In this document: piece after piece, positions 10,873-52,695 of the stretch
Numbering within the stretch: position 1 is the first letter of the stretch
Layout: the number at the start of each line of letters is the position of its first letter
DNA from: a virus
Lineage: Duplodnaviria; Caudoviricetes
IMG/VR virus record: IMGVR_UViG_3300027205_000173
Location: 1 to 64,000 of that record
Length of the DNA: 64,000 nucleotides
Direction: 5' to 3' (one strand)
Made by a program: the position numbers and the translations under genes
The notes under the pieces: generated by a model
Told to the model about the DNA's origin: nothing
The model's database searches: none
The model's input: only the letters and a program-made list of their open reading frames with translations

Positions 10873-13800
10873 TTATGCTTCTTCCACTAAATCTTGTGAA
10901 ACATTAATAGGTGTCGATAATTCTTGTAGTTTTGGTGATTGAGAGATAAGGTAATCTACTGCTTTTTGTGCTTGGCTGGCAGCACGTTGAATTGCACTAG
11001 GGTCATCTTTTAATATCTCAATCCATGATTTTAGATATTGGGCATGTTGTGCTTGCGGCGTTGCTTCCATTCCTAGAATAGCCATCAAGTAGGCGGAACC
11101 TATTTCCGCTACTAGTTCTTCAAAAGCGTATTCCGGCGTGCCGAATCTGTTCATGTTTGGGCGGTTGGCTCTATCTCTATGTCCGGTCCAGTGAACTAAT
11201 TCGTGAGAAAGCGTTGCGTAATATGCGTTTGGGTCTTTGAAGGCCGTAAATGGGGGCATATTAATATAGTCGCTAGCCGGACTATAGTATGCAGAATCTC
11301 CATTGATTGTTTTGATATTGGGGAGAATTTGCCCAAATATTTCCTCAAGCGCAGGAATTCTTTCTTCGGGAGAAAGTCTTGGAGGTAGGAAATCATCTGG
11401 ATTTGCCCCAGTAACTTGAGCAATATTAAAGACAGTAAAGGCACTCGGAGTCAAGAATGTGTCTTTTGACGAAGTTCCATCGGGGAGTTTGACGTTACGT
11501 TCGCGAGAAACCCACTTGGTCCCAGTTAAACCCTTTTCGCCTCTTTGAACTTGTGCACCGAGTGCTTCCCACTGTTTATATGTGGCCCAAACTGGGTGAT
11601 CATACTTGCGAGCCTGTTGAACAAGAGAGAATAAGATGACATTAAAGCCCTTGTATGAATTTTTAGTGGAGGCGTTTCTTGGAATTGTCGTCCCTAAATT
11701 CCAAGGACGTTCCCAATTCCCATCAACAGATTCCTCTAGGGCTGCAATGAGTGCATCAGAAACAGTTTTATAGATTTCTTCTGACCTATTTGCTCTCCCT
11801 GTTTCAGAAGTTGGCTTCGATCTGCTCGCCATACCGTTTACACGATTGATCGATTGTTCAATTCTTTGTGATTTAGGTATTTTAGAAATTGTTGGACGGT
11901 TATTGGAGTTATAAATCAACATTTCGTTTGGTCCAAGTTCGCCACTTGCTATTGATGGCGTTGGTCTCTTCTTGCGAACTGGTTCGGCAATTGAAAAATC
12001 AGGAAGATTATTGATATTGCTCATAATCCCATAGTCGGAAAGCATTGCTTCTGTTGCAACAGAACTATTTAGTTTACTTTTTACTATTTTTGTTGTTGGA
12101 GATAACAAATCTTTACGATCATTCAACATGTCGCGTGTAATCAATTGAGAATTTATATTATTCCATTCATTTATTGGAACATTTAATGGAACGTTTTGCC
12201 CAGATGACTTAATTGCTTTGATATATCCTGATTTATCTTTATTTTCAATGAATTTTCTGACGTCTATAGGGGGTCCATCGTTGAATTGAAATGTTCCAAA
12301 CTGATCAATTACGTTATTTACTTCAGATATCTGATTATCCAACTCAGAATTCTTTATTGACAAATCTTCATTGATCCCATGAACATCGTTAAGGTGTCCA
12401 TATATAATTTGTATCTTCGATACCAACGGATCGATGTTTGCATCTGGGCGATTAGCATTACTCATCTTGCCAATTTCTAGCAATGCATCATTTGCATCAG
12501 ATAAAAGAACATTGCCTGGAGTTTGTGTCAACTCTTCTGTTGATATATCAGAATAATTGCGTGATCGGAACCCGCGAGCGATCATTTTGGGCACTTTGTT
12601 TCTATTAAGACCAATAGCGCCATCAAGTTTTGTTTGACTATCAACTATGGCTTCACGCAAATCAACACCATCTAATATTGCACCAGTAAGGTCGGCCCCA
12701 GACAAGTCTATCTTTCCCTGTATTTTCGCATCAGCGAAATTGGCATCAGTAAGGTTGGCTCCTTTAAATGAAACACCTCTACCAATTGTTGCGTTTCTAA
12801 AATTAGCACCAATCAAATTTGAATAATTAAATTTTACATTATTTAATATACTTTTATCAAAATTTGTTCTAAATAATGAACTGGCAGTTAAATCCACATT
12901 CGCCATTGTTGAATTTGACAATGTGCTTTCACTAAAAGTCGAACGTCTTAAATCCGTATTCATAATTTCTGATTTTTTCAAATCTCTACGTAAAAGTTCA
13001 GATTTCTTGACACCAAGCGGTCCATCAATTTTTAAAACACCATCAGTAATGTTTTTGAGAAATAAATCAGCGTCATCGCTTCCAATAACGCCAAGAGGAA
13101 TCTTATGAAGTGAGGGTTTCTGGGTGATTGTCCCATTATTTTCTGCAACAGGTAATGATAACCCATCAGGTAACTTAGTTGTTGAGTTAAATTTCGAATT
13201 CATTAATTGTTCTGCGGTAATATTTGATCCACGCAAATCTGCGCCGCGCAAATCAGTGTTCCATAAAACGGCATTCTCAAAATTTACATTTTTCAAATTG
13301 GATTTGCTCAAATTAGTCGAAATCATTAGAGCGCCAGATAAATCAACTCCTTCAAATTGAGAATTTGGCATTTGTGCAGCACTCAATACCGAGTACCTTA
13401 AATCAGCAGGCTGAGAATCATCTTTACCAAATATGATTCCAGAACCATTTAAATTACTTAAATTGGAACCAAATAAAGACGATCCCGTTAGGTTGATTCC
13501 ATCCAGATTTGCTCTTGTAAGATTTGCATAATCTATATTTCTATTCCTGAAATCAATACGCGGATCAACATGTATTGAAATCATTTCTGCCATACGTAAA
13601 TTATTATTACTCAAGTCTTTGGACGTAAGTGGATTCTTGGGAGTGAACCCATTAAAAATTAATCCACCAAAAATTTCATCCTTTTCTATTGATTGGCCGA
13701 GTTGATTACGCGAACGCATACCAGAAAGAACAAGACCTTCGTTTTTGGCTGCTATTTTTTCAAAATACGCAGAAGCAGCAGCCATGGTATCCCAATCATT

Positions 13801-17718: not shown

Positions 17719-17749
17719 GTAGAGTAATCCTTAACATTCTAATTAACTG

Positions 17750-18106: not shown

Positions 18107-18118
18107 GGCCCCTTCTCC

Positions 18119-24100: not shown

Positions 24101-25750
24101 GCCGTCTCTTGTTTTGGTCCAGTCGGAATTGGAACGCATGCCAGAACGTGAACGCATGCCGCGTTCTTCGTCAAACCCTCTATCATCGGAACCACGCAAA
24201 ATTGATTCAAATACGTTCAAATGTTTCAACGCGCCAACATCTGCTCCGCGTTCCTGCTCAAGAGTTTCGCCGATCTCTTTGTTTCTTGCTACCAAACGAT
24301 TGGCCCTATCGTTTTCGTCAACCAGTACTTCTACTTCCCAGTTGCCCTTATTCCACTTGTCCCCATTTTTTTGCCAGCCATTCCTACTGAGAGACGAGTC
24401 ATAATCATTACGCGAACGCATGCCGCCAGAGTTACGGCGCTGCATCTCACGAGCCTCAAGACGACGAGCCTCAAGACGACCACCCTTCAAACCATACTTC
24501 TTCGCAGCCTCATCAAGATTCAAACCAGCATAACGATCCTCAATCAAACGATCAACGATCTCCTGCTCCGACAACTTATTCAACTCACCAGGAGAAAGCG
24601 GAGTCGCATCACCAAGATCGGCACGCTGACCACTACGCATACCCCGACGCGAAGCAATCTCCCTACGACGCGAACCAATATTGCCAGCAACATTACGAGC
24701 AGCAACAGAAACACGCTCACGCCCAGAAGTCGTAGTAGCAGGAACGCCACGATCATTACTTACGGCCTGAAGAAGACTCGCATCCCCACCAACACTGGCA
24801 ACAATATTACGTAACTTACCTTCATCAAACTGAACACTCGTATTACCGGCACGACGCTGTTTCTCAATCTCTTCAGCATCACCCTCAACGATTCCAGACA
24901 ACTTGCGGGCAAGGTCCTTCGGAACCATGAAACGAGGGATAATTGGTCGCTCTAGGCCCGGCTTACCTTCAAAAACAATACCGTCGGTATCAGCGTCGGT
25001 CACACCAGTAACGTCAACAAAAGACATGCCAGCAGGGGCAGCACGAAGACCGCCACTCAAACGACTACCAATCTTCGGACCAATACCAGCAGCCTTGAAT
25101 TCAATACCGAAAGACTGAGCAAGCGCCTGATCCTTGCGGACAACAGCAAGCATCTTTACGGACTTCTTACGAATAAGACTCAAGCCGATAGCACGCTGCA
25201 AAGAACGACCGTACGAGTCAATAATTTCTGCTTGCTTTACTTCAGGGGTGTGAATTGGGTTGCGTGAACTGAATACGCCTTCATTTGAAACGAATCCCAG
25301 TCTCTCTGCACGTACTTGAGTAAGCAATGATGAAACCTTGGAGTCGGTACGGAATGCGCGCGCCTTAAAAGCAATGGCTTCATTACGCTTGTCGATGTCA
25401 AATGCACGTAATTCTGCGTCACGAACACCAGGAACGACCGAAGAAGAGTTTTTGATCAAAGAATCAGAGATACCTTGCTTCTTATTAATTGAAGGATTAC
25501 GGAGCGATACAGTATCTACGAGTGCTTGAACATAGTTGGGGTTGGTATTACGAAGGGCCGAGTAACCGCCTACTACGACGCCTATTGGGAGACCATTGTT
25601 TTCACTTTTGACATTGATGCCGTTGGCCCACTTGGACCATTCGAGACCTTTGGCGCTTACGCCGTAAAATTTCGAGAGACCGTTACTATCAACGATCACT
25701 CCAAAAATACTGTCATTAATAGAATCTTTTAATAGGGCGTAACGATTCAC
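18119..25750 (-). CDS. 2543-aa polyvalent polyprotein (~17 GMRS-type motifs): DxDxDG module, many acidic modules, WGR, 2x KTSC, C-terminal ART-like domain
   Basis: LTVSWGR (WGR); SSALRQASYD...YTYKN and SSAIEALTWD...YTYKD (KTSC); VVRG...GEGEYW...LGYDTI...HNRTAI. Confidence 0.85.
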   Translation of the reverse strand: MNRYALLKDSINDSIFGVIVDSNGLSKFYGVSAKGLEWSKWANGINVKSENNGLPIGVVVGGYSALRNTNPNYVQALVDTVSLRNPSINKKQGISDSLIKNSSSVVPGVRDAELRAFDIDKRNEAIAFKARAFRTDSKVSSLLTQVRAERLGFVSNEGVFSSRNPIHTPEVKQAEIIDSYGRSLQRAIGLSLIRKKSVKMLAVVRKDQALAQSFGIEFKAAGIGPKIGSRLSGGLRAAPAGMSFVDVTGVTDADTDGIVFEGKPGLERPIIPRFMVPKDLARKLSGIVEGDAEEIEKQRRAGNTSVQFDEGKLRNIVASVGGDASLLQAVSNDRGVPATTTSGRERVSVAARNVAGNIGSRRREIASRRGMRSGQRADLGDATPLSPGELNKLSEQEIVDRLIEDRYAGLNLDEAAKKYGLKGGRLEARRLEAREMQRRNSGGMRSRNDYDSSLSRNGWQKNGDKWNKGNWEVEVLVDENDRANRLVARNKEIGETLEQERGADVGALKHLNVFESILRGSDDRGFDEERGMRSRSGMRSNSDWTKTRDGIEMDAPDIDGLYEIQGNNKEGFVVTRYSDGFRNGGQDTREYEHDRIFKSRAAAKKWAERDYDMASYGMRSRSGGMRSRSMREQKRIDSNLRAMDRATGGYASWDDDSWDNYRQVGRVLDGENLNQADRDMLEEVGGKIASGELLEELKPDDRRQVVSDFRMASGYADPTLEVEEKLGEFLTPDEVGNVMYNGVETLSGAKRKRAEKIIDDAANSRRELGMRYGGMRSRSGDDLDEESGLEARLKSGVKVTADDITDDEINDFMDEVHDNKQEILDEIFGAPTEDDLDEIGAGRDWGFEASGSRGSERDYIPDEDDLLSEHYDAMTDVLTENDYALAKEYIAEQINEQMKNYWAENWDDLSSDVQDRRFYDALKRIFDEKKPEYNQGWGWFDEEPKRDFRGYVIRPTDEEYDAAFGKWKEADAAYRQRESQARKEAKEEAKKQFEDEVKKYGPGGMRSRSGGMRSNSENPDNQIHMTSRELNAVDDRLSNIIESGRGGFSAEEENALNDFKDSIDNAGAAFDSIVMDDDVRDTLIDLFGNIAKNGDDPNGDAKNLLGLLESVRDADGNEFVTDELDRLGTMHDMNFDGSVMRAPGGVRRAMRRAMARRGNRDGRGMRSRTEPLFEAERLSGNDLSRAQDYKLFEAAMDSRRFDPNRLNDGEIDSDWIMDALNHYFYNTQVNDDLAADIEDLMVERDEKGQDPETRSAGFAKDNARSVIKHWQDSVDDDPDKMGDLLSSYEGDLVAAMEDHYDDYLNGQLDTFENRRESGMRSRSIKLRSDVKGAEEDIENEFDKWEKNLKGRYKNARQAEYGLQDLLVDLDKAANESATNDDDYERLNDFIDLIAKFIRRDIKDLFGFDDDYDDEEFDDDDYDYDALASGERQGMRSRGYRNDDDSDYGDDDYGVDRGDWDDDLDPDERRRIMDGMGRRSGGMRSRYSDDSADGYAEADAPDLDREDYENYIDTPTFEEHLNDWLVDNPGKNREDFINDPDGAELAWDSYMERNDPKKYYGISDAEWAAGFRSRSGGMRSSTQLRGRDFKRDANIRANHLGKDAETWPRTARLQDVIYPERPYYGAEDVSRSDKIILSAPSENGGPEGKVYIAEFDEETGTLTVSWGRADSRNLQTKVYSGKTQEDFHKLLRGKEQRGYRLEGGHIPAKSSSYDKDVDWKADHEKQAKMGMRSSTATEQRPYFNVSVAGSSALRQASYDAEKEELVVTYANGKTYTYKNFSNDDLDNALSGPDYVLTGTAVNQIKKNHDFREGGVHTFDPEYQDIQGPGGQIGTGKLSRLGRREKTQIPVSGSSAIEALTWDDDKKDLIVTYAGGRTYTYKDVDSYWIEDLERETGTGRIINNIKKEGYRVVDGGEHGDMPSEGLTAERANFGMRSRMAPSSGRIRAAEMEISARPQGMASRRSEGLRDPRFAVPGRDRVDPSDGQLWGRLSDEEKTTVADRAVNREKMLLNEFKQRFPRWWDRASKEADKKGWDKDLMNGGNAGWMDELHRFVTRLADDPDYPEKNRVEAEKQFNDLQALYNMRSNRGVHDLLEHLNPTSRRYLFDDARRDDSKKTRISASGKEMKTPSTAPRPLGDPIDTGTPIREQVGQNEKKPLKERLDAYYKRMSDKILYTDPARQARREMRKARRQGINAGGFTTSEANPVDDAKRKIRRRKRLKEMRKNRTRDIGSISNSSTGNRIDGRLAHTDSQGSLVFGEKLTPTLATMMKNYRTESKLKKTKGGVSRNRALAVLWDGAGYNGTPNIVTAEEFKTLHAAGWVPVVRGHGGGANGVRYANDWLDDPVRFITGQGGEAQGEGEYWARPTQGGGGWFSWMDGSLPAGTVGLLPPSTRRVSKAELGKIKSEHAPLAKSIKSFDAGLPSGEREKMNAEEYVTQLRDHLRASLGPIYESTMSTKMGQMTSKILESLSGSSDSKKQELLDALEFLELISTKRTSNSYAPLLGYDTIMADSGVELIHNRTAITIVGDTFTRDDAVKLAKSKA

Positions 25751-27771
25751 TCAAATCCTCCAAGTATGTTCCGGATTGAATCTCCGGCTCTTTCTAGGGA
25801 GCCAATTCTTTGATTGACTATCCTTTGTATTATTCCTAAATGAATTTTTTCTGTTTCAGTCAATTTTCCATCAATGGTAAATCTGGCTTGATATTTCTCA
25901 AAATTGAACGCCCGCGCCCGTTCTAGCAACTTATTGATAATGGCAAGGAATTGTCTTTTTTGTAGACTCTTCAACTCTCTATAATACTCCTCATAGGAGC
26001 CATTCTCAGCAAGTGATGTCATTTGTGCAATGAGTTCTTCGGCGGTCTTGACTTTTTTCTGAACCTCTACGAAGTCGGGCAAGTTGATGGTTGGAACAAC
26101 AGCATTTTTATCTGACAATTCTATAATGTCAATACTTGAGGGCGACCTATTGGCGTCCCCTGTCAATAGGTCGGAAACTAAGAGTGCTGCAACATGAGAA
26201 ATATCGCCATCTTTAAATAATTTGGTCGTAGATGGGGTATTGCCTGGGTAAACGGTTCCGGATGTTTCTTTCAAATATGGACGACGTGGGCCCATTCCAT
26301 ATGGATAGATATCTGGAGATTCAATACCAAAATGTTGCTGAATGTCTGAAACGAGGGTGGCGTCAAGGTGTTCAAAGTCGTTAAGTGGCGTGATTGATAA
26401 ATATGATCTTCCATTGGGGCCATCAAAAATCTTTTGATTATTCCCAATATTGCGTGCTTTAAACAAACCTGCTTGAATAAGTGCCTGTTGAAGAATGTCG
26501 GGAGAAATTGAAGCAAGACTTCCACCCGCCGCAATATGAGCAACTGCCTCTTGAATGGACGTTATTTTCTCAGAAATCCCAGATTCAGAAGAGGTCTGTC
26601 TTGCTTCGGGCAACGGCTTGCTCTTGCGGTTGGCGAATACTTGACCCACCCAACTTTCAACCATTTTGCCATTTCTTGCAGCGATTCTCTTATGAGGATT
26701 ACTGACCCCAATGAAATTTTCGGAATATTGAATTCCGTCGCCAGTTTCTTCGGCAACAGACATCAGTCTTGCTGCGGCAATCTGACTATTATCAATACGG
26801 GATGCAGCATTGACTGTTCTGCCCAGTTTGCGACGTTCGCCAACGGTCAATGGTCTAACTTTTTCTAGACTAAGTGTCGATCCACCAGGTAAAACGTACA
26901 TAATTTTGGTTACTCCAGTATTTGAGAGTAACCCAAGTTCTTCGCCACCAAGGGAAGAAACATTATTTGCATTTAAAATATATGCCGCCCCTTCCATGTC
27001 ACGATTATCGGGAATAGTTCTCAAAACTTTTGGAGAAACTACTGGTTCCAAAATGAATCCGTCACGCCGTACCATTCTCTTGGCATCAAGATTCGGCTGA
27101 TTCATGTCCTTTACAATTTGCCTAATACTTTCAAGTTGCTTCTTGACATCACTGTCAGTAACTCGCGGAATCTGTGGAGCGCGAGAATCAATAACTGACC
27201 CGCCATACTCTCCCGGGGTTAACGCTGTACCTTCTATAGTGATGGGTTTGAGGTTTGCCTCCCGACGCAATGCACGCAGGGCGGATATGACTAGACCAAG
27301 TGGACCAGGGATATCGAATAGTTTTGCTCCACAGGTCGTAAATTGGTTATCCGTAAAACGACCGCCATACTGGTAGCCCTCAGGGCATCTGTGGACCTTG
27401 TCGCGACCAGTGCGTATGCGTGGTCGCATGGGGATGCTGGGGACACCGGGGGTCAATAAAGAGAATCCCGTAGAACGAACCGGACTTCTTAGAATCGACG
27501 AATCACCAGGCAGGAAGTATGAACCAACTGCCTGTGCGGTTTGTCCAATAGTGGAAGACGAGCCAATCGTGCCAACACGTTTGACCCGATAATTATCACC
27601 AAGGCCAAGCATTTTGACCATGGCTTTATAGTTGACAATTTCCTGTTTCGATGCTACTGAACCAATAAAAGCATTACCATCGGCATTTTTTGTTGTTAGA
27701 ACATGACGTTTAACAACAACCTCCTGGTTGGGGCAACATTTACTTGGTTTAATGATCTCAAAAGAGTTCAT
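25747..27771 (-). CDS. 674-aa protein with RCPxG..FTD motif and degenerate JAB-like and HipA/PI3K-like kinase domains
   Basis: RCPEGYQYGGRFTD; MEGAAYILNANNVSSLGGEEL (JAB-like spacing without the His residues); DLLTGDANRSPSSI (compare DxLxxNxDRHxxN). Confidence 0.55.
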   Translation of the reverse strand: MNSFEIIKPSKCCPNQEVVVKRHVLTTKNADGNAFIGSVASKQEIVNYKAMVKMLGLGDNYRVKRVGTIGSSSTIGQTAQAVGSYFLPGDSSILRSPVRSTGFSLLTPGVPSIPMRPRIRTGRDKVHRCPEGYQYGGRFTDNQFTTCGAKLFDIPGPLGLVISALRALRREANLKPITIEGTALTPGEYGGSVIDSRAPQIPRVTDSDVKKQLESIRQIVKDMNQPNLDAKRMVRRDGFILEPVVSPKVLRTIPDNRDMEGAAYILNANNVSSLGGEELGLLSNTGVTKIMYVLPGGSTLSLEKVRPLTVGERRKLGRTVNAASRIDNSQIAAARLMSVAEETGDGIQYSENFIGVSNPHKRIAARNGKMVESWVGQVFANRKSKPLPEARQTSSESGISEKITSIQEAVAHIAAGGSLASISPDILQQALIQAGLFKARNIGNNQKIFDGPNGRSYLSITPLNDFEHLDATLVSDIQQHFGIESPDIYPYGMGPRRPYLKETSGTVYPGNTPSTTKLFKDGDISHVAALLVSDLLTGDANRSPSSIDIIELSDKNAVVPTINLPDFVEVQKKVKTAEELIAQMTSLAENGSYEEYYRELKSLQKRQFLAIINKLLERARAFNFEKYQARFTIDGKLTETEKIHLGIIQRIVNQRIGSLERAGDSIRNILGGFE

Positions 27772-28415
27772 CAGTCACATCCACAATCCTCTACGGGAAG
27801 AAGTGACTTTAGGGTAAAGCCGGCTTCGTTCTCACCTTCGAATTCCCAGTTATCGTTATTGCGCAAATACTCAGCAAATTTCGATTCCATTTCACAAAAA
27901 TCTGACAGTACCTGAAATGCGTGAGACAGATCGTCTGGTGTAACTACGTGGTTTTCGTTACCGGCATAGATATTTAGACCTTTGGTGTACCAATCAGTAT
28001 CAAAGAAAACTTCGTTTTGAAGTGATTTTGTGCCCGCTTTGGGGATACGGGATAGACGGTTATTAAATTGCTCATTAGACCACAATGAGCCGTTTACGCC
28101 TTTCTTGAGTTTACGGCGACAGTTCTTCATGGTGGGGTGATGGCAGCCTTCATTTGGCCACAAGCCCGTGGTTTCATGATGTAGCCAAGCACAAATATTG
28201 TTTAGTGGGAATAATTCTGGATGGTCCGCCAAAATGACCTTGCAACGTCTAAACCCGCCTGGCTTGCGCATAATTGGACGCCAGTAACGGAGAAGTCGTT
28301 CGAGATTTCCTCTTCGTGGGCCGTATCCCTTTAGTACGTCACCAGTGAATTTTTCTTGAGGGATACCGACCTCAGGTATCGCTGCTTTGTAAGAGTAGCG
28401 TCCAGTTTCCATCAT
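27771..28415 (-). CDS. Head-operon protein with a Cys/His-containing domain
   Basis: LLRYW...PGGFRRC...CAWLHHETTGLWP resembles a domain I recall from actinophage head/protease fusion proteins; several K|A/S/G sites. Confidence 0.6.
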   Translation of the reverse strand: MMETGRYSYKAAIPEVGIPQEKFTGDVLKGYGPRRGNLERLLRYWRPIMRKPGGFRRCKVILADHPELFPLNNICAWLHHETTGLWPNEGCHHPTMKNCRRKLKKGVNGSLWSNEQFNNRLSRIPKAGTKSLQNEVFFDTDWYTKGLNIYAGNENHVVTPDDLSHAFQVLSDFCEMESKFAEYLRNNDNWEFEGENEAGFTLKSLLPVEDCGCD

Positions 28416-28768
28416 AACTCCGATATGTATTTTTTGAGGAAATCATCAGATTTCGTTAACTCTAATAAGTCTAGCCTATCTTCGGGAGGATAATTAATTA
28501 GTCCGCTTGTGATGAGTTCAAAATATGGCTTATCGTCTTCTCGTACCCAGTTCTTTTTTCCTGGGAGTGACATGATTGCAGCGATTTCTTGTGCTTTGTT
28601 TTTGCGGCTGGTTTCGTGGGGGTCGACTCCTGTTTGGAGTTTCCTGGCCCTACTGATGTGCTCGTCAATAGATAAATCTGAATTATTTACCGAGACTAAA
28701 GTCATTCCCCAAAGTTGTTTGATTTTTTGGTTCCACTCTTCTTGACTAATCATATTATTTTGCCTCAC
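28412..28768 (-). CDS. Hypothetical protein
   Basis: 118-aa ORF overlapping both neighbours in the operon. Confidence 0.6.
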   Translation of the reverse strand: MRQNNMISQEEWNQKIKQLWGMTLVSVNNSDLSIDEHISRARKLQTGVDPHETSRKNKAQEIAAIMSLPGKKNWVREDDKPYFELITSGLINYPPEDRLDLLELTKSDDFLKKYISEL

Positions 28769-31535
28769 TAATATTACTCAATTTACCCTTTGGGAAAAGC
28801 CAACTAAGTAACTTATCAAACAATTTAATTTCGTCAGAAGTTAATGCGCGTTTTGAAGTTGATCGACCGTCAACATCCTCATGAACCTGAATAGGTATAC
28901 CAAAAGCATCATAAACTGCCAACTCGGCCATCAACTCCGAACTATCGGGATTCGATTGAAGAAAACTAACGATTCTCCTATTGAGCGCCGTTGACATATA
29001 GTTCCTGTATCCCGGCTCGGCAGACTGTCTAGCCATATCAATAATACTTTTTACATCATCATCTTTCAGCGAATCAAAATGCCAAAAATCCATACCAGTA
29101 GTTTCCATGATGGTTCCAAGAGTTGCGGGATCGGCATTTTTTGCAAGAGGAGCAAAAGAATTAATAATGGACATTTCTGCAATATTTTTCAACCCGTCCA
29201 CATCATCTATTGCTGCCATATCCTGAATTGTCCGCGCGTTTAATTGTGATGAATGCAACAACGGCCCAGCAACATCAGTTGGGGTGTGTCTAAAAGACCC
29301 AACAGCACGAACACTTCTTAGATCAACGCCAGAATGAATAATTCTTCCGACCATACCCATTGCAGAATTGACGGAATCAGCGATCAATTTTCCTGATTCC
29401 TTAGATAGGGGGCGAGTTTTCCCTCGCTGCATCACGAGTGCCGGGTATCCCTCTTGCCTAATCAACGTTAATGCATTACTGGCAACAGTCTTGTCTTTAT
29501 CGTAATACAATTTGATTCCCGCAAATTGCCTTCTGGCATCCTGTCTCTGAAGGCTCAGGATTCTTCCGTCTGCAAGCATGTGTGCTTGTGCAAAAGTAAA
29601 ATTATCTCCTTCTTTATAAGGATATCCGTCACCAAAAACACTTTGTCCGCTCATAGATTCAAGGCGATTAAAAAGATCAGCAATTTCTTTATTTATTTTA
29701 ATAACCGAACCATCTTTGTTATAAAGAGGCTGATTCATAAAATCTTCTAAGGTGTTTTGCGCATCCTGATTGCCAGTAGATGATGCCTTATAAGCAAGGT
29801 TTTTAAATACATCAGAAAATATCCTATTCAAAACTACCGCATTCATGTCGGTTGCATCATCCAAAATTTGTTTCAATTGTTTTTTATCCATGGATTTTGT
29901 CATCATTGAAGCAATTTCGGGGATACCAACAGAGGGATCAACACCGCGTTGAAGTAGATAGGCCGACATATCTTCGTGCATTTGCGCAAGGTGTGCGGCA
30001 TGTGTGGCTTCGTGTATAGCCGTAGACCTGGCCAAAACAGACCACATCTCTTCATGGTATTTGAGAGCACCCTTGGCCTGATCTGTAAATCCGTCAGATA
30101 TAACAGATGATTGATTCTTTACAACGTCGCGAACTTTTTCGATAAGCCTAATCGTTGCTCCATTATCAAACATGTTGTCAGGGATGACTCCAGCATCCAT
30201 CAAGTACTTAATAGTGTCCATTGTTGCTTGATCAACACCAGGAAGCCGTGCGTCTGGGTTGGAACCAAATTGGGGAGTAACTAAATCAATAAAATTGCCC
30301 AAAGAGTTATTCATATTATTGTAATTGAGAAATTCATAAACAGACATCAAGGCCTCGTCATCCAACGATCCGCCCAAACTCTCCGCCATTCCGCTCATCA
30401 TGGCGGAACCAATAATATTTGAACTTACATCAAATCGACCTTCACTGAATAGGGTGGATGGACTCGCCATCCTGTACATCGGGTCCATGGGGTGACGATA
30501 AGTAATGGTGATTTTTGGTGTTCTATTTTTTGTAGCAACATACGCCCCATTGACTACAGTCCATTGATGTCCTGATTGATAGCGAGTTGATCCACCAACA
30601 CCCGGCTCATCACCTATACCAAAAGGTTTCATGTCATAAGAAAACTTTTTCATACTTGGGTTAGCGTGCAATGCGAGCAAGAACCCAACAATATTTTCAT
30701 AAGCGTAAGATTCTAAAGGCTGATCGTCTGGTCCGTCTAGGAAATCAAATCGTGATTCACCACTAGCAAAACTTGGTAATTCATTCATTAATATTCTTTT
30801 AACATCACCGATTGATGTAATCGGTTTACCGTCATTGAATCTTTTTTCAAGAAATTTATCTTGTTTTATTATTGTTTGACGAATTTGATCAACCGAAATC
30901 GTTGCGAACCTATCGACAGGAGAAGATGATGTTCGTACCCTCATCCCCTGAGCACGAACAGATTTTGGAATTCGTATATTCGCTACATCTAAACCAGGTA
31001 TGAATGGACGCATCGTAGGCAAGCCATCATCAATGAATCCATCATTGTCACCGTCATAACCAGCACGAACAGGACCAAGAATTTTAGAATTCATCCCCAT
31101 GATTGTGCGATTGGATGATCTCCGATTACCAAGCGCCGAATTCGGCATCTTTTCAAATTGTTGAGAAAATACCAATGACTTAAATGCCATGATTTGATTG
31201 TTCTTACTCTGAGCAACAAGGCGTTTCTTGGGCTTTTTCTTAACTTCAACATCCTTGATGAGGCTTTCATCGACTGGCTGTGTGCGATTCATAAAAACGC
31301 GCTTCCAGCGATCAGCCATCTGTCCTTCTGCTCCATCCCATAAAAACTTATGAAATGGGGTAGAACGAATTTCGTTCATATCAGGGTTACTACTAATAAA
31401 AGAAACTAGATCAACTGGAGTTTCGGTTTCCTGGGAGTCGATAAAGATTGCATTCTTTTCAGTGGGGTTAGCGTCGGCGTTATAGAACAATTTCCCCTCT
31501 CCTGTATTTCCAACAAAAATAAGACGCGTAGGCAT
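28755..31535 (-). CDS. 926-aa protein with DxDxDG module and zincin (HEATH) motif
   Basis: YDGDNDGFIDDGLPTMRPFIPG; GMRVR motif variant; AIHEATH with a distal ELMAE. Confidence 0.75.
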   Translation of the reverse strand: MPTRLIFVGNTGEGKLFYNADANPTEKNAIFIDSQETETPVDLVSFISSNPDMNEIRSTPFHKFLWDGAEGQMADRWKRVFMNRTQPVDESLIKDVEVKKKPKKRLVAQSKNNQIMAFKSLVFSQQFEKMPNSALGNRRSSNRTIMGMNSKILGPVRAGYDGDNDGFIDDGLPTMRPFIPGLDVANIRIPKSVRAQGMRVRTSSSPVDRFATISVDQIRQTIIKQDKFLEKRFNDGKPITSIGDVKRILMNELPSFASGESRFDFLDGPDDQPLESYAYENIVGFLLALHANPSMKKFSYDMKPFGIGDEPGVGGSTRYQSGHQWTVVNGAYVATKNRTPKITITYRHPMDPMYRMASPSTLFSEGRFDVSSNIIGSAMMSGMAESLGGSLDDEALMSVYEFLNYNNMNNSLGNFIDLVTPQFGSNPDARLPGVDQATMDTIKYLMDAGVIPDNMFDNGATIRLIEKVRDVVKNQSSVISDGFTDQAKGALKYHEEMWSVLARSTAIHEATHAAHLAQMHEDMSAYLLQRGVDPSVGIPEIASMMTKSMDKKQLKQILDDATDMNAVVLNRIFSDVFKNLAYKASSTGNQDAQNTLEDFMNQPLYNKDGSVIKINKEIADLFNRLESMSGQSVFGDGYPYKEGDNFTFAQAHMLADGRILSLQRQDARRQFAGIKLYYDKDKTVASNALTLIRQEGYPALVMQRGKTRPLSKESGKLIADSVNSAMGMVGRIIHSGVDLRSVRAVGSFRHTPTDVAGPLLHSSQLNARTIQDMAAIDDVDGLKNIAEMSIINSFAPLAKNADPATLGTIMETTGMDFWHFDSLKDDDVKSIIDMARQSAEPGYRNYMSTALNRRIVSFLQSNPDSSELMAELAVYDAFGIPIQVHEDVDGRSTSKRALTSDEIKLFDKLLSWLFPKGKLSNISEAK

Positions 31536-39523: not shown

Positions 39524-39535
39524 TCCCTGTTGTAG

Positions 39536-41665
39536 TTACTTGGTCGTTGAAGGATTGTCTACCTCGGCAGCGAGCATCTCAAACTCAACGAGAGATTGAA
39601 TAAACTCTTCTGCCGGGTTGGACTTTTCTGCCGTTTTCCAATTTTCGGGAAGCATTTCCTCAAGACCCAACGCTGCAGCACGTGACTTGATGTGTGCTTT
39701 TGCTGCATCTGAGTCCTTTGCTCTTCCATGAGCCATGATTGCGTTGCGGAGATCGTTTTCGCTTGCAATTGGGAACGATCCATCAGGCATTGCGGTGCCT
39801 TCTTTTGCCATCTCTTGACGCTTATCTTCTGGGAATGCACGCTTGAGGGCGATTTCTGCTGCCTCTGCTTCGATTTCTGCTGTTTCGTCAGAGTTGTATG
39901 AGTCGTAGCCGAGCGTTTCGCCATCAAGTGCAACAAAAACGTCGTATGACTTGCCATCAACGCCATCGATTTCAACTTGATAAGAGTCGAAACCTTCAAA
40001 CACTGCTGGCTCTACGGCGACAACACTGCCAGGGATCGATTTGACAGCAATTTCTGCTGCTTCGTTAAAGTCGATGAGTTCGATGTCATCCATGATTGAC
40101 TTCTGTGAAAGAACTGAGTCATCCAGACGATGAAAGCCAAGAACTTCTGCTGATGTTCCATCAACGAATACTTCGTTAATGCTTCCAGACTTTGTCTCTA
40201 CGTCAATAACGTACATGTCCGCATCTTGCGAGTAGCCGGAGTCAATGACTTCGCCCTTGAACATAACTTCGACGAGTCCTTCGACGTGGAGGAGTCCTGG
40301 CATTCCTTTTTCTGCCATGCATCCACCAGGGCAGTCATCACATACGGATGCTGCGCCAGGATATACCTTGCGGTCGATAGCACACATATAGCCATTCATG
40401 CCTACATCTGCTGACTTTGTTCCAAGTTTACGTAGGCGTGCCATACGCATTGCTTCTAGATCGGGTGCCATATCCATATCGTCGGCTTCTCCTTCTTCGT
40501 CTTCCATGTACATTTCTTCGTTGTCTTCATCTTCAGGCATCATTTCGTCTGCCCTACGTTGCATTAGGCTGCGACGCATTTGTTGTGGCCTAGAACTGTT
40601 ACCCCTGCTTGGCATCATGTACATTTTGCCTTCTTCGTCCATCATGTACTCGTTACCTTCGTCATCCATATACATTTCTTCGTCCTCGTCGTACATTTCT
40701 TCATCAGAAGCCTTGCGAGGCATCGCATCAGAAATGCCGAGTATGTCGCGTCCTACCGCGAAGATTGGCTTAGGAGTGCCACCAGTTGATCTTCGTTCCC
40801 ATGGACCCCACATTGCTTCACTGCGGCGATTACTTGAATGGCCTGGGCTCGCCGTGGGTCTTGCACCGCCGCCGCCTGGCCGTGCGGCCATCTTGCCTTC
40901 ATCTTCCATGCCCATGTTCTCTTCGTCGTCCATGTACATTTCTTCTTCGTCGTCCATCATTTCTTCAGCCAACATTTGCATTCTTCCGGTCGGAGGTCGC
41001 TGCATAACTCCGCCACCGCCAGGCTTCCGGGGTCCGCGAGGACGTGGTCTTGGGTCTGGCAATGGGCCTGGGCCTGGGCGTCCACCACGACCGCCGCCGC
41101 CCATGCCGTACATGCCTTTTTCTTCTTCGTCCATATACTCTTCGTCGTCCATGTACATTTCTTCGTCCTCATCATCTTCGGGCATCATTTCTTCACCCTT
41201 GACTGGGCGGTAGAGACCATCTTGCATTGATGCGGTGTAGGCGCGACGGGTTGCTTTTGGTGTTTGCCACATTCCAGCACCCTTGGTTTTGAGCATGGGC
41301 TTACCATTCTCCATTGGTGCTTCTTCTTCTGATTCTTCTAATAAATCTTCTTCATCAGTGGTTTCTTCTTCGTCTTCTTCGTCGACGGGAACCATTTTGA
41401 TTTCGACAGCCATTGCGCCACATTTTCCACAGACTTTTTTGTCTGCTTCATATCCACATTCGGAGCCAGGCAAAGACTTGGCACACTTGATTACAGTACC
41501 ATCACCATCAATTTTGACGACCGATTTTTCGTTTAAATCCATTATGTGAGACTCCTTATAGTGAATGCTCTTGTCGAGACATCCGTTATGGCTGGGGCAA
41601 CCACTACAAGGAATATTAGCCTGTTCGGCTTCTACCATGCAGAAGTATTTGGATATTTTTTTCAT
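39536..41665 (-). CDS. 709-aa scaffold-like protein: Cys clusters, alternating acidic and basic blocks, 2x PepSY-like, C-terminal DUF6582-like domain
   Basis: D/E/M/Y blocks ending in K|G/M/A; IDFNEAAEIAVKSIPGSVVAVE...YQVEI...YDVFV...GETLG (PepSY); AMPDGSFPI...DLRNAI...HIKSRA...LPENW. Confidence 0.7.
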   Translation of the reverse strand: MKKISKYFCMVEAEQANIPCSGCPSHNGCLDKSIHYKESHIMDLNEKSVVKIDGDGTVIKCAKSLPGSECGYEADKKVCGKCGAMAVEIKMVPVDEEDEEETTDEEDLLEESEEEAPMENGKPMLKTKGAGMWQTPKATRRAYTASMQDGLYRPVKGEEMMPEDDEDEEMYMDDEEYMDEEEKGMYGMGGGGRGGRPGPGPLPDPRPRPRGPRKPGGGGVMQRPPTGRMQMLAEEMMDDEEEMYMDDEENMGMEDEGKMAARPGGGGARPTASPGHSSNRRSEAMWGPWERRSTGGTPKPIFAVGRDILGISDAMPRKASDEEMYDEDEEMYMDDEGNEYMMDEEGKMYMMPSRGNSSRPQQMRRSLMQRRADEMMPEDEDNEEMYMEDEEGEADDMDMAPDLEAMRMARLRKLGTKSADVGMNGYMCAIDRKVYPGAASVCDDCPGGCMAEKGMPGLLHVEGLVEVMFKGEVIDSGYSQDADMYVIDVETKSGSINEVFVDGTSAEVLGFHRLDDSVLSQKSIMDDIELIDFNEAAEIAVKSIPGSVVAVEPAVFEGFDSYQVEIDGVDGKSYDVFVALDGETLGYDSYNSDETAEIEAEAAEIALKRAFPEDKRQEMAKEGTAMPDGSFPIASENDLRNAIMAHGRAKDSDAAKAHIKSRAAALGLEEMLPENWKTAEKSNPAEEFIQSLVEFEMLAAEVDNPSTTK

Positions 41666-41718
41666 TTTAATCTAGGTTAAGTGTACAACAAACTAACATA
41701 AGTGCATGTAAATTACTG

Positions 41719-50700: not shown

Positions 50701-52695
50701 CTGACGGTCATCCTGTTCATCAAGTTCTGCATCAATATCCGAGTCGCCCGAGCGCGAACGCATTCCCTGCTGGCGTCCCTTGCTAGGTTTTGTTTCTCTT
50801 AAATTGGGGAATGGTGGAAAGGGGCGAGTTCTTTTTTCAAATTCTTCATCAGTTTCATCAAACTTCTTACGAGGTTTGCCGGTTCCTAGATCGAATGGCA
50901 GGTCAGAACCAATAGGTTGCATTTCGCCACGTGAGCGCATGCCACCATCATTAGTGCCTGATAAACTCTGTAAGAGATTAGGGTTACCACCGATATCGTC
51001 GATGATTGAACGTAGTTTCTTTTCATCAAAAGAAACATTGCCATTACCTGAGCGACGTTGCTTTTCAATTGCTTCGGCATCTCCCTCGACGACTGCCGAA
51101 AGTTTTCTGGCAAGGTTCTTGGGTACGATAAAGCGAGGAATAATTGGTCGTTCCAAGCCTGGCTTGCCTTCAAAAACAATGCCGTCAGAGTCGGCGTCAG
51201 TAACGCCAGTAATGTCAACGAATGCCATGCCTGCAGGAGCCGCACGCAAGCCGCCCCCTAGTTTCGGACCAATTTTGCCACTAAGGGCTTTTATTCTGGT
51301 CTTGGGGGCGTCTTTGGTGTTAGGCGCCCCATCACCTTTTTTTGAACCACCGCCACCATCTAGGTAGGAGGAGATATTTTTGTGGGCTGATCTGAGTGCC
51401 TGTAGTGAATCTTCGTTGATCCCGCTAGTGATATGGACTCCGTAGTCGTCAACGTGTGCTTCTAGGCGATGGTAATTGAGTACGGGGTCTAGTAGTGACT
51501 TGACCTCGTATGCATATTGTGGCTTGCACCATACCGAATATTCCAAGGCAGTTTTTTTCTGCTGTCCACCAGCAAGATTGCGCAAATAGTCGATGGCATC
51601 TTGGATTTTCTGCAATTCGCTTTCCTTGATTGTTTCATCTTCTCCGGCGTTAGAAAGAACTTCGACTGCCTGATCAAGTTGATCATCAAATGATTTCATC
51701 ATCGAAACTGGCTGCTGGGAATCACCATAGGACTGGGTTACATATCCTGGCTTAACCATCATCGGCATCGAAGGCATTTGCGATGGAACAATCTGTTGTG
51801 AAGCCATCTTCTCTGGCTTGCCGAACATGTATCTGCCGCTTTGTGACTCGCGATGGTACCCAATTCGATAAGTCATGCGGGTTCCGTCTGGCATTGTGCG
51901 ATCAAAAACAACGCTGTTTTCGGTTGCGTTCACTACTTTGAGTGGGCTTGCTGATCGTGAAGATAATTCCATTTCAAGTGCGGCACGAGCCTCGCCGCCA
52001 AGTTGGCCAGATTCTCCTGAAGCAAAAATGTCTGTTCGTTCGTTTGCTGCTGGGAATGTTTGCGGTTTTGCTGGGGAGAGGTTAAAGCGAGGGATGTCGA
52101 TAGCCGTCGAACCAGGTCGACTTTGACGCATTCCGCCCTGCATTCCTTCTGGACCACATTTTTCGCCATTTTCGTCGCTTTTGACGGAAAGTGTGGCAGT
52201 GAGTTGGTTTGCTCCGTGGAGAACAGGGCTGACTTCGTATAATTCAACTTCACGCAGGACGTTGGCTTGCATTGTGGGATCAAACGTTGCTTGAAGTGTC
52301 TTGTAGCCGATTGACCATTCTTGTTCTTGTCCAAAGAATGCCACGCTGCCAAATCCTTCGCGTCCCTTTTCCGTTGCAAGGTTGAATTGGACGCGAGCGT
52401 ATAGTCCACCGACCCCGGCCATCTTCATCTTCATGGGGATACGTGGGTCGTTTGCTGGTACTTCGTAGATTTCTAGAACTTTACCGATAGGGTCATTCCA
52501 GTTGTGTCCCCAGACCACGCGTGGCTTACGACGCTTGAGGCTTTCCGTAAATGCACCGCTGATGATCACATCGCCTACCGAATCCTTATTACCGATGGCG
52601 GCTACAAAACATTCAACGATTCCTTGCGCTGAGTCAATATTAATTTGACCATCAAGCGCTTTGAAAAGTATGTCTGACGTCGAGAAATTGGACAT
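41719..52695 (-). CDS. 3658-aa polyprotein: N-terminal HK97-family (S78) prohead protease followed by ~24 GMRS-delimited modules, including KTSC
   Basis: DSVGDVIISGAF, VWGH (catalytic His), WSIGY (catalytic Ser), LYEVSPVLHGAN; the domain ends at SVK|S near 52180. AAGGAG SD; directly downstream of the portal gene. Confidence 0.92.
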   Translation of the reverse strand: MSNFSTSDILFKALDGQINIDSAQGIVECFVAAIGNKDSVGDVIISGAFTESLKRRKPRVVWGHNWNDPIGKVLEIYEVPANDPRIPMKMKMAGVGGLYARVQFNLATEKGREGFGSVAFFGQEQEWSIGYKTLQATFDPTMQANVLREVELYEVSPVLHGANQLTATLSVKSDENGEKCGPEGMQGGMRQSRPGSTAIDIPRFNLSPAKPQTFPAANERTDIFASGESGQLGGEARAALEMELSSRSASPLKVVNATENSVVFDRTMPDGTRMTYRIGYHRESQSGRYMFGKPEKMASQQIVPSQMPSMPMMVKPGYVTQSYGDSQQPVSMMKSFDDQLDQAVEVLSNAGEDETIKESELQKIQDAIDYLRNLAGGQQKKTALEYSVWCKPQYAYEVKSLLDPVLNYHRLEAHVDDYGVHITSGINEDSLQALRSAHKNISSYLDGGGGSKKGDGAPNTKDAPKTRIKALSGKIGPKLGGGLRAAPAGMAFVDITGVTDADSDGIVFEGKPGLERPIIPRFIVPKNLARKLSAVVEGDAEAIEKQRRSGNGNVSFDEKKLRSIIDDIGGNPNLLQSLSGTNDGGMRSRGEMQPIGSDLPFDLGTGKPRKKFDETDEEFEKRTRPFPPFPNLRETKPSKGRQQGMRSRSGDSDIDAELDEQDDRQFRENRLDAPRKKPQKSMRELREENRLKRQRDAAEYDTEAMLDEWADDQRNMEREDRGMRSRGYVGPPDSWYEPDDDPLEPIMENVGEEWSRMDSDRYYETARDWTRENVDKYKDMTDDEWDSLLDDVNESDDPIAAMEKLFKEYNNSDAFDDDIQKAAESDLENAQEEDRGWVRGFRSRSGDPEIDYQLDEQDDRQFRENRLNAPRKKPQKSMRELREENRLKRQREAENDPEYIQYMLDEQADMQRDMEREERGMRSTSQRKIYSDQVAADRARKVLEDDGVDPRDLFQGDDESTQDYLDRITPLIEKYAPEIFDGRSLDEFVSKDNISEVNKLIDNAYSNNDVIREGLDVRVFNDGMGDASESRLWMDFVDTEVDVADGPAGSFLQDSGLVDYIETEGDSDGGWSWSIDVSKASPEDKKRFVASAVSDAIMSHEGSWGRDGFVLRDKDRGMRSRRGPTYNEQFEDLDQDSDHFENLLERTVEIMIEDDELDPKDVDWSNILDNEKVMSRAEEMWNSDVQTHWENVGERQRDDVGMRSRLGDAVRKQGREIGKDLKREAKKFAREKGRELLDDAVDNIFDRNRRDRGMRSRRFREDSKPDKKLKPAYGRRGPVQALQNMSDEELIKLLQSYGETAWRPWDRNPQSSSLLLRDRPSLSSLVQELDSRGYDVYQSEGREPEYFGDYSAGDKSVYARKRGQEPSTLPNGGMSSGEEEKGTQDVIDSQLEDRRRSESKTWKATVPDDYKPSDGALETLTPAERRLLETFKPKSKAQRKQEMLDSFRNQAKRDVDSNKPYDTWDWYPTFEEWDQEYKKKLRQYRKAQRKAYAHDLEKGNVKPVEERAVQQTGWSVENLDWDNFKPKPLRFGSYDGPRDVPELLRGFRSKITDGLRNERNNSVEPKVTKEQRAFDILAQMSQRSGQKFGLSDKELQDIFDGDQRINPELMKIVRSELKRQGFTKDDVADVLSGRYAGYARNQISGPSDDGERIFESEMESIANRAFLESMDILSDGLTVDEFQDFVSSGRIPQGKESILRRANEVYDNIVKDSDKQRTMGLRSRTGRNIDAEIDTNIKKQRDLEKELDDEKIDLAEFRRRQAPLRQEFSDLRKEQGAESATRKAPELDATGRPRREMIERDEKGKVKFDSEKFLAEQNDKRRLTMSELGFTEDEINTLMGASSSGMRSRSGSHENFKNTRDAYLSKNSEGIVNKLEELTQRRNELDAKSKELMDQYYANGRDFNDEENDLFDEIENELDSVNDEIKGITDWAKYAVSEDTQRLVGRTGTTKARVAYKKMLDDGDINQEEYDALITDLIDPAFFDDEHWDSVDAISFVSNLRDNFEGSEFDDIDPDYLITEKIDDLSSDFADEKVTEALDRLKNGGMRSRSGKKNNSEKRKMNTKLTPDQVRIMQEQKLRSKKIPGKKKDGPSTNEWGFRSREDFGNSAGAAIGYISEIFSKDDKNLSSNEKYLRNHLLDNGVKIDFYRADREGSVGSDISLRDNAKANMDDKLDALVNAISKDKRASDILSNNGFLMDDRAWESAPSYKNRPNRKGPKLGDRERGVEARANIIDLAPGDVLPENWDDETSAVGEPMVRIADIRSDGQEDGYVTMVLENMSDGTTETRTFGTNDTFPNVSRPSGSRGGRQQGMRSRRSYDDESGSRGVREGVAESEHFEGFMWIDQLKGDNVDADVIPLADIYGDDRPGYGVVGVYRTDDGFGGIEYFYGGDDEEFDSVEDAMDFLQNVDDQGNEGILYGDPEFRSLDRVRAAGKPGRRPLEGMRSQTNSGSTNMEDATDEELKNLMNDWFDVTDGKVSVDDPLEKKKIRDSYFAAKQEIDRRRKENKSRKPGTNSKPTSGMRSRRSYDDEGGSGGVREGVAESKYNTGSKWIDRLNGENVDAEVIPLADIYGDDTPGYGVVGMFRTEDGVEYFYGGADDEEFDSVEDAMDFLQNIEDQGNDDVFYEDEQFRSLDRVRAAGKPGRRPLEGLRSRSGGTSANVEADRRDAAHDSRLNLMSPNYLDELSRREDVQTRLNVANNDMAYLETIKDLLEDENLEVRKAADKNIQRRFGAIANQPSSDARKPASRQRRQAARKYLIKHEERMKKAGLRSRSNREEGLEVGEKFKPGEIIRRNKDRDIEPRRFAAAAKRPPDDPDDPDDVQEIADGMRSKAGTGLGESREIYPSRRMAESSAVDFVRYDAAKEELVVQYKGGGAYVFGGISADDADSIEEAESLGKALNDVKRNATYSVKPNGDVNGVESTTVDFLERDLRRIPMSEDEKSVYGNAIELLRNGITEDSDLERVQSQVTNISNLANDMWGNDEYAASNFLSEAAEKINKKLNIARGGGGFRSRAGARHQKMEVNLSVDEIGLIRDEIRGITAKHGGNGMITYGMKKYDNLLEELQNQKKSNPGRSLTILSSEYDNVMTAYDELEKVDPSWIKMFGADPLEMASVSKEGKYTSPNVDMPGEEFDGKRINNGAPADITPRMQGQLVDWGRRQPNFRIVKGLVEAHKKNNGTMTARQWSTLRNMFDRFSEENRSGGVRSRVGSGMRSQTGSAVSTSRPGKGKGPRTAKDALPENYETLSLDEKFDALISAGKYDESTNPNGIQVGEYNAAFRRLRDAEDQQDRITARREALAERMKRSAEAGPVTRRPEVMEQDSPRRADDAETTPENRAALAKKVRQKQMSTIEKVVAKAQDSISGAIIDGDAEDEHGRLWDEVMDLVQAEDGGDDTDLTLSKLSSIIEALDDYTIGFDGEEMSPAERKSVNNATKLKNTLEELYDDIDSDPFIKRGNTSREQAGVSLGGEEDDNPTPRFMTGEGLRSRSSLVNGYIGSRKNAERQPKAGMRSRSGTEQDGRAEIRWEATEFNKVEQSLSREISEAQRSGDSKTANSLRNLTKIMDRQKSGDVGGKRTNAGALYLTQSELDDVMDALMHVVDRQTQTDGSRTNMFAQMLDKLAEAGMTTFIRKTAKPVNSRFVEKTNESGRTVKIPLNE
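44740..45765 (-). repeat. Duplicated ~130-aa module (45361-45765 and 44740-45137), each copy bounded by GMRS/GLRS
   Basis: RRSYDDE.G..GVREGVAES...VIPLADIYGDD.PGYGVVG...FRSLDRVRAAGKPGRRPLEG(M/L)RS occurs twice. Confidence 0.9.
49928..50766 (-). repeat. Duplicated ~80-aa module (50523-50766 and 49928-50178), each copy bounded by GMRS/GFRS
   Basis: RSGD..ID..LDEQDDRQFRENRL.APRKKPQKSMRELREENRLKRQR...MERE.RGMRS occurs twice. Confidence 0.9.

Follow-up and report, generated by a model that had tools for sequence, protein, structure and literature searches.

Giant proteins punctuated by a recurrent G-Φ-x-S peptide in the head operon of an uncultured tailed phage: candidate polyproteins for capsid delivery

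Analysing a 64,000-nucleotide window (positions 1 to 64,000 of the IMG/VR virus record IMGVR_UViG_3300027205_000173; Duplodnaviria, Caudoviricetes), which is part of a single 124,933-bp contig of an uncultured lake phage, we characterized four giant proteins encoded between the portal and major capsid genes and punctuated by a short recurrent peptide, G-[M/L/F/V]-R-S. This peptide recurs far beyond chance, lies in linkers between predicted domains and is replaced by sibling peptides at aligned positions in related phages, and we are highly confident that it represents a selected, functional signal between modules. The first giant carries an HK97-type prohead protease at its N-terminus, and a conserved address module is found once in most of these proteins. 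Together, these features tip the balance, with a confidence modestly above even, towards polyvalent proteins that would be loaded into the capsid and cut at the motif by the fused prohead protease.

A recurrent tetrapeptide restricted to four giant proteins

The four giants, hereafter A, C, G and H (3658, 2662, 2543 and 2281 amino acids, aa, respectively), were screened with the regular expression G[MLFV]RS, which matched 24 times in A, 17 times in G and 5 times in each of C and H. These numbers coincide exactly with the hand counts (~24, ~17, 5 and 5) of an earlier note made from the letters of this DNA and its translated reading frames. Under a null of 2000 composition-preserving shuffles per protein, the mean number of matches was 0.35 for A, 0.29 for G, 0.17 for C and 0.19 for H and never exceeded 3, so that the motif is enriched over its composition null, by 40-70 fold, an enrichment restricted to the four giants. 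Not a single match was found among the other 22 open reading frames (ORFs) of the window with 150 aa or more, including the portal, capsid and terminase genes, in which the note had also failed to find it. When the count was extended to every stop-to-stop frame of 100 aa or more in the whole 124,933-bp genome, only two real ORFs outside the giants were added, with one match each.

With 37 copies, GMRS outnumbers every other tetrapeptide of the region, and it is embedded in an extended consensus [R/G]-G-M-R-S-R-[S/T]-G. The variants GMSS, GMAS and GMRV and the doubled sites that the note had pointed out were all recovered, together with GMNS; the doublets lie 6-8 aa apart (e.g. GMRSRSGMRS, GMRSRSGGMRS).

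Motif sites lie in linkers between predicted modules

Several measures place the motif outside the folded parts of the chains. The hydrophobic fraction, 0.24 in the background, drops to 0.06-0.12 at up to 5 residues from a site and is restored by ~20 residues, and sites also have lower FoldIndex values than other positions (Mann-Whitney p=5e-10). Sites are mostly spaced by 50-270 aa, none of them falls inside any Pfam envelope, and they bracket the Zeta_toxin, pentapeptide, RNase_T, KTSC and ArdC-N/MPTase domains; most of the modules on either side are mutually unrelated. The claim that the motif avoids recognisable domains is therefore borne out by the Pfam envelopes, by hydropathy and by the structural models described below. 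The earlier list of modules preceded by the motif was recovered for Zeta_toxin, the pentapeptide block, the DEDDh exonuclease (RNase_T) and KTSC, as well as for ArdC-N preceded by GMAS, but the 'WGR' module that it also contained was not recovered by Pfam.

Two regions of protein A were modelled with AlphaFold2 (AF2). The first model (aa 1-640, from a 26-sequence alignment) displays folded blocks at 20-158 (the protease), 230-300, 335-445 and 485-575, separated by segments with a predicted local distance difference test score (pLDDT) below 50. The second (aa 2760-3658, from the 20 sequences of alignment A2) has a mean pLDDT of 73, and 6 of its 7 motif sites lie in or at segments of pLDDT <50, which make up 21% of the chain (binomial chance ~5e-4). 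Foldseek searches against the PDB returned nothing significant for either model, apart from a weak match to T4 gp21 and the KTSC domain.

The boundaries of homology point in the same direction. The ends of BLAST-aligned blocks are found within 15 aa of a site at 2-4 times the frequency of random positions, and the blocks 1810-2021 and 2016-2330 of protein C terminate at motif sites. Proteins A (aa 474-2183) and G (aa 226-2059) are paralogous, with 27% identity over 1589 aligned residues and their modules in the same order, and five motif sites coincide in their alignment; within A, an internal duplication (2311-2442 versus 2520-2649) copies motif sites. As a separate observation, four relatives (L134, L152, L127 and L151) carry in columns ~640-900 of alignment A2 an extra insert of ~250 aa with kinase-like signatures (e.g. 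FVANAWLANWD...GN), where the linker of this phage consists of the doublet GVRSRVGSGMRS only, so that a motif site marks the exact point where a whole module was acquired or lost.

Sibling motifs across related phages

Relatives were retrieved from IMG/VR through the capsid protein (438 confirmed matches) and the portal (310 confirmed matches). Giant ORFs follow the portal in most of these contigs, and many of them lack GMRS and repeat a sibling peptide instead: [RK][LF]SSG in up to 16 copies, G[MLF]AS in 9, S[ST]RS in 9, GSKSTT in 7, and G[MLF]SS, SMRS and SISGRM in 6 each, all of them expected 0.04-0.3 times from shuffles. These siblings replace one another in aligned linkers, as in RPLEGMRS, RPLAGFSS and RPLAGLAS, and in two column blocks of alignment A2 that read GMRS, GFSS, GLSS, SSKSTT, SSRS or SMRS in the first and GMRS, GFAS, GFSS, GMSS or GMRA in the second.

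In close relatives (~90% identity), all of the 39 alignable sites are still G-Φ-R-S (Φ, hydrophobic residue), with 96.8% identity in the motif, 84.6% in the ten residues on each side and 90.6% overall, and several indel junctions abut the motif. Codon choice at the motif is mixed among the relatives (AGG versus CGN and AGC versus TCN, among others), indicating that the peptide is what is kept. A DNA-level recombination signal, considered as the sole explanation of the recurrence, was ruled out by these mixed codons with a retained peptide.

On a larger scale, a search of 5.8 billion proteins yielded 262 protease-led clusters of 2,011-6,402 aa, all metagenomic and none with a name more specific than 'HK97 family phage prohead protease'. 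Among the best 120 of these 262 giants, one class motif reaches 5 or more copies in 103, and ~40 of the 120 mix GxRS, GxSS and GxAS within one chain; the top case among the matches listed has 26 copies of DGFASRG in a 5,358-aa chain. When the tips of a protease tree with 119 tips are read in order, the dominant motif class switches ~30 times. The protein database also contained giants as long as 5,687 aa, and a complete 148-kb relative with direct terminal repeats (G003, the contig of L162) has a 3,967-aa open frame containing MPTase (66700-67077).

Judging from these alignments, the real code is a family-level G-Φ-[R/S/A]-S with fixed Gly and Ser, in which this phage prefers Arg. It is also written [RK][LF]SSG, STRS and in other forms, the third residue (P1, preceding the putative cut) being interchangeable even within one protein. 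The earlier definition of the code as GMRS itself was thus too narrow: the motif is kept in homologous contigs of close relatives, but other clades have sibling motifs at the aligned positions.

The nearest cultured relatives by capsid protein are Gordonia and Brevibacterium myophages (~48% identity). The recurrent motif was not found in Chidieberevirus and Cantarevirus, which have separate cargo-like genes (RNA ligase, VIP2-like ADP-ribosyltransferase, HNH) between portal and protease. These separate genes, in Gordonia phage ChisanaKitsune (L001) and Brevibacterium phage Cantare (L002), may represent the unfused counterpart of the cargo region. In both phages, a gene of 970-1,040 aa annotated 'HNH/hypothetical' was also observed in the portal-protease interval.

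Fusion to the prohead protease and a shared address module

The N-terminal domain of protein A belongs to the prohead serine protease family MEROPS S78 (Pfam PF04586). His64, Ser128 and His160 are invariant in the 26-sequence alignment, and we take them to be the catalytic triad from their spacing and by likeness to the His/Ser/His of assemblin. The domain is predicted with a pLDDT of ~70-80, and its fold weakly matches that of T4 gp21 (PDB 5jbl, template modelling score 0.48, Foldseek). The earlier polyprotein claim stands at least in this respect: giants of polyvalent type do occupy the head operon, and the first one is fused to an S78 protease with intact catalytic residues.

In some relatives (L088, L095-L106), a stand-alone protease aligns to aa 1-445 of A and ends there, the next ORF being a giant; the fusion therefore represents a gene-boundary variant within one family. 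The prohead protease is also the sole peptidase common to all relatives, either fused to the first giant or immediately upstream of it. C-terminal to the protease domain, we also observed in all cases a Met/Pro/Gly-rich low-complexity stretch predicted by AF2 to be disordered, which reads GPEGMQGGMRQSRPG in this phage (aa 176-228 of A, ~52012-52170, minus strand) and MHGMMPM or PGMPxGMP in relatives.

A second conserved element, here called the address module, spans ~60 aa and follows the pattern ...GGGLR[AS]AP.GM.F.D.TG..D.D.DGIVFEG.P..ERPIIP or the variant RFDP.AWDGDGDG.VQEGTP..RPAIP; its short form is DxDxDG-[IV]...ERP-x-IP, often after GGGLR[AS]AP-GM-x-F. It occurs once each in the giants A, G and H and in the 926-aa protein of the same operon, was not found in giant C, and matched no Pfam family. 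Relatives also carry it once per giant, in 53 distinct ORFs and in four kinds of position: just past the protease body (aa ~480-517), at the start of the giant behind a stand-alone protease (aa ~55-95), after the conserved N-domain of giants adjacent to the capsid gene (aa ~240-270), or at the C-terminus of the stand-alone protease. Because the module is common to the protease, which must enter the prohead, and to most of these proteins, it is best read as a putative element routing or anchoring them into the prohead.

Organization of the head operon

On the minus strand, the portal gene is followed by eight ORFs (3658, 709, 2662, 926, 214, 674, 2543 and 2281 aa) and by the gene for the HK97-fold major capsid protein (Table 1), which has an N-terminal extension of ~150 aa. 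The cargo interval from portal to capsid gene covers ~42 kb, i.e. one third of the genome. The peptidase/ArdC module closing protein H was assigned to PF18818 (MPTase-PolyVal, 147 bits) and PF08401 (ArdC-N, 87 bits), and Pfam searches detected neither domain in giants A, C and G. For the 709-, 926-, 214- and 674-aa proteins and for most modules, searches of PHROGs, Pfam (E up to 5) and a protein atlas found no function; the 674-aa protein had only weak kinase-like leads in the protein atlas (scores below 0.9).

Table 1. Coordinates of the head operon genes and of their main elements in the window
Feature	Position	Strand	Description
Large terminase subunit	55118..56422	+	Divergent orientation; edge of head module; PHROG 979 E=2e-108
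Portal protein, 674 aa	52815..54839	-	Opens head operon; Pfam Phage_portal E=5e-45; 0 motif matches
Giant protein A, 3658 aa	41719..52695	-	Protease body, address module and ~24 motif-delimited modules; KTSC aa 2851-2906; 24 G[MLFV]RS sites
HK97-type (S78) prohead serine protease domain, aa 24-170 of A	52186..52626	-	Peptidase_S78 40.3 bits vs cut-off 21
Ancestral 'protease protein' body, aa 1 to ~450 of A	51346..52695	-	Corresponds to stand-alone 460-515-aa protease of relatives
Address module of A, aa 474-575	50971-51276	-	GGLRAAPAGMAF...DADSDGIVFEGKPGLERPIIP; common to G aa 215-330
First GMRS site, aa 585-588 of A	50932..50943	-	Directly after address module; in low-confidence segment 575-601 (AF2)
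709-aa protein	39536..41665	-	Without motif; C-terminal 280 aa ~60% identical in relatives
Giant protein C, 2662 aa	31535..39523	-	5 motif sites; DEDDh exonuclease (RNase_T, aa 2064-2254) between sites 2016 and 2314
926-aa protein	28755..31535	-	Address module aa ~150-185, with GMNS (147) and GMRV (197) on either side
Address module of 926-aa protein	30936-31088	-	
214-aa protein	27771..28415	-	Without motif
674-aa protein	25747..27771	-	Without motif; ~40% identity kept in 35/47 related loci
Giant protein G, 2543 aa	18119..25750	-	17 motif sites including four doublets; address module aa 215-330; two KTSC domains; paralogue of A
Address module of G	24761-25108	-	
Giant protein H, 2281 aa	10873..17718	-	5 sites, GMSS x2 and GMAS x1
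Address module of H	16903-17046	-	
Protein H domains (Pfam)			DUF3721; address module aa ~228-262; Zeta_toxin 688-841; pentapeptide repeats 1473-1675; ArdC-N 1981-2097; MPTase-PolyVal 2124-2249
HK97-fold major capsid protein, 435 aa	9229..10536	-	Pfam Phage_capsid E=3e-45; HK97 gp5 structures match E ~1e-56

A candidate cleavage code and its alternatives

How the giants might work can be pictured as follows. The address module would probably dock the chains that carry it inside the assembling prohead, and protease and cargo would enter together because the first giant is fused directly behind the protease. Inside the prohead, the protease (His64/Ser128/His160) would cut the exposed linkers at G-Φ-[R/S/A]|S, that is at G-M-R|S in this phage, and release ~45 modules of 50-270 aa. 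The released set would comprise a zeta-type kinase, a pentapeptide DNA mimic, ArdC with its metallopeptidase, a DEDDh exonuclease, KTSC domains and many unassigned modules, all leaving with the DNA at infection. About 50 effectors had been proposed in the earlier note; dozens of modules are indeed predicted, but their number is nearer 45 because several sites are doublets 6-8 aa apart. Both the HK97 protease, at Lys103|Ser104, and the herpesvirus assemblin, at Ala|Ser, cut in front of a Ser, which is the P1' residue (after the cut). By analogy, a protease with P1' Ser and a tolerant P1 would fit the invariant Ser of the motif.

Several observations weigh against such processing. The capsid protein, which is necessarily a substrate of such a protease, contains no G[MLFV]RS; its candidate sites (FK97|S98, EFK110|A, NM121-S-S and LTG133|S) fit a loose Φ-x-S rule only, and none of its sites co-varies with the clade motif (FKS, EFK[SA] and NMxS are alike in all clades). 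Between motif classes, the protease domain retains 75-90% identity, and inspection by eye across these classes gave no convincing class-specific residues; since the protease barely varies between classes, the drift of the motif is not explained by a changed specificity. A few related giants (L061, L078 and L054) have no recurrent motif, and none of the close relatives of this phage is cultured. Finally, codon usage at the 51 sites is biased, with Arg written CGT in 39 of 51 (background 40%) and Ser written TCA in 31 of 51 (background 25%), Gly codons being unbiased and the relatives being free of the CGT/TCA bias, which hints at a homogenisation of linkers by recombination. As a distinct matter, the FK|SIG of the capsid protein was examined as a counterpart of the K|SLG of HK97 and discarded, as its position does not back the likeness (HK97 Ser104 maps near aa 140).

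The alternative that best survives is that the chains stay uncut, the motif acting as a hinge or docking peptide, as a pause or unfolding signal during threading through the tail, or as an in-frame recombination joint. We give it about one chance in four. It would account for the 2-4 times enrichment of homology-block ends near sites, for the indel junctions abutting the motif, for the codon bias of this phage and for the lack of a matching site in the capsid protein, and it has a precedent in phage N4, which packages an uncut virion RNA polymerase of 3,500 aa (PMC5512222). However, a pure DNA joint should conserve nucleotides, whereas the codons of relatives are mixed, and a 4-aa hinge needs neither an invariant Gly nor an invariant Ser. 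Doublets 6-8 aa apart in an exposed basic context are a better fit to protease sites, and cutting is also favoured by the protease fusion and by the precedent of T4 and phiKZ, whose cargo is analogous. Moreover, recombination at joints is compatible with cleavage, and both may coexist.

It is less probable, and in our view rather unlikely, that the motif is cut by another protease, either the ArdC-linked zincin (MPTase-PolyVal) carried as cargo and acting in the head or after ejection, or a cytoplasmic protease of the host. The ArdC-N/MPTase-PolyVal C-terminus of protein H (147 bits) provides a candidate, this module recurs as mobile cargo in giants of several clades, release of polyvalent domains by MPTase was already proposed by Iyer et al. 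(PMC5512222), and the prohead protease remains near-constant while the motif drifts. Against this, a whole-contig hidden Markov model (HMM) search found no MPTase in G001 (GFSS class) and G002 (GMAS, 9 copies), two contigs that span portal to capsid gene and encode punctuated giants, although the same search did detect it in G003 (E=1e-46), and of 47 loci only 3 have an MPTase in the 10 kb that precede the capsid gene upstream.

A functionless artefact of low complexity or recent internal duplication, to which the A/G paralogy, the site-copying duplications of A and the Gly-, Ser- and Arg-rich linkers might have pointed, is extremely improbable given that composition-kept shuffles never gave more than 3 matches, that flanking modules are mostly unrelated and sites survive at 27% paralogue identity, and that altered motif forms occur across clades, with the pattern in 103 of the 120 independent giants listed.

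Weighing these alternatives, processing by the fused prohead protease remains our preferred reading. Its broader form would be a large, uncultured freshwater lineage, probably of actinophages, with a true polyprotein strategy, in which a capsid protease fused to its cargo, a 4-residue code G-Φ-x|S read inside the prohead and four genes would together provide some 45 distinct anti-defence or takeover proteins. The code would double as the in-frame joint for module swaps between phages, so that cut sites would coincide with the boundaries of evolutionary units; we put this forward tentatively, with a likelihood a little short of even. If the motif is a cut site, dozens of capsid-loaded proteins would derive from four genes, one third of the genome would be pre-made infection cargo, and the polyprotein economy so far associated with RNA viruses would extend to tailed phages. 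The sequence rule would likewise split thousands of residues of unannotated phage giants into individual candidate effectors, and so offer a parts list for work on anti-defence and host takeover. The drift of the code between clades, with R, S or A interchangeable, provides natural data on the specificity of proteases of the HK97 type, enzymes that also serve engineered capsid loading.

Comparison with known systems

The closest known system is that of the polyvalent proteins, which Iyer et al. (2017) predicted to be packaged in the head, injected and released by embedded peptidases, like RNA-virus polyproteins (PMC5512222). Several unrelated conflict or early-function domains indeed share one chain here (DUF3721, Zeta_toxin, pentapeptide, ArdC-N and MPTase-PolyVal in H, RNase_T in C, KTSC in A and G), and the giants lie between the portal and HK97-fold capsid genes with the terminase adjacent, as polyvalent proteins do. 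Giant multidomain architecture, portal-terminase context, the ArdC-N/MPTase hub, a zeta-type kinase and a nuclease are all common to both, and protein H, by its predicted domains, is a textbook polyvalent protein. In the 2017 survey, however, an assemblin-like peptidase occurs at C-termini only and no recurrent inter-domain motif is described (PMC5512222), whereas the giants described here have an N-terminal protease, up to 24 sites per chain of one clade-drifting code and a single address module per carrier protein. Effectors fused to a capsid-processing serine peptidase were noted in a later paper (PMC9503650). The novelty claimed in the earlier note thus holds for the punctuation motif, of which we found no description in phage head giants in the literature, but not for the peptidase release of packaged polyvalent proteins, which had already been proposed (PMC5512222). 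With a defined site and a defined protease, that 2017 prediction becomes directly testable.

Processing of packaged cargo at a short consensus is known from T4 gp21 (L/I-x-E) and from phiKZ gp175 and SPN3US gp245 (A/S/G-x-E) (PMC10052503, PMC5694885). In these phages, a capsid protease cuts packaged cargo that is routed by N-terminal propeptides or targeting sequences and ejected into the host, much as the reading proposed here would have it. The cargo of these phages is encoded by separate genes, usually with one propeptide-removing cut, and their motif also marks the capsid protein; the giants, in contrast, would hold many modules per chain, with an S78 (HK97) type protease, a P1' Ser rather than a P1 Glu, and no matching site in the capsid protein.

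With HK97 itself, this phage has in common the Pfam S78 protease family and the capsid fold, and the basic P1 and Ser P1' of the HK97 site resemble GMR|S. The gp4 protease, the maturation of gp5 at Lys103|Ser104 and the C-terminal tail of gp4 as a capsid-targeting signal were reportedly described by Conway in 1995 and Duda in 2013. Such a protease-borne targeting element can bring passengers into the prohead. HK97 is nevertheless not known to have cargo, and its protease of 225 aa is degraded, whereas here a protease body of ~450 aa precedes passengers totalling ~3,200 aa.

Head packaging of very large proteins with anti-defence or early functions is likewise known from the P1 Dar system (DarB, 2,255 aa, and DdrB) and from the N4 virion RNA polymerase, and P1 DdrB undergoes proteolytic processing (PMC5512222; PMC9024508). 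Each of these giants has a single function and lacks repeated punctuation, and the N4 polymerase is packaged uncut.

Finally, the organization of the giants recalls two systems outside tailed phages. An embedded protease and repeated consensus sites, here the N-terminal S78 domain and 51 sites in linkers between predicted domains, are combined in RNA-virus polyproteins, as with picornavirus 3C sites between products, and a short conserved peptide at the boundary of cassette exchange is typical of the demarcation motifs of polymorphic toxins (VENN, DPxGL). In this case, however, the proteins are unrelated to either, they belong to a double-stranded DNA tailed phage, and their products would be virion cargo rather than replication proteins or secreted toxins.

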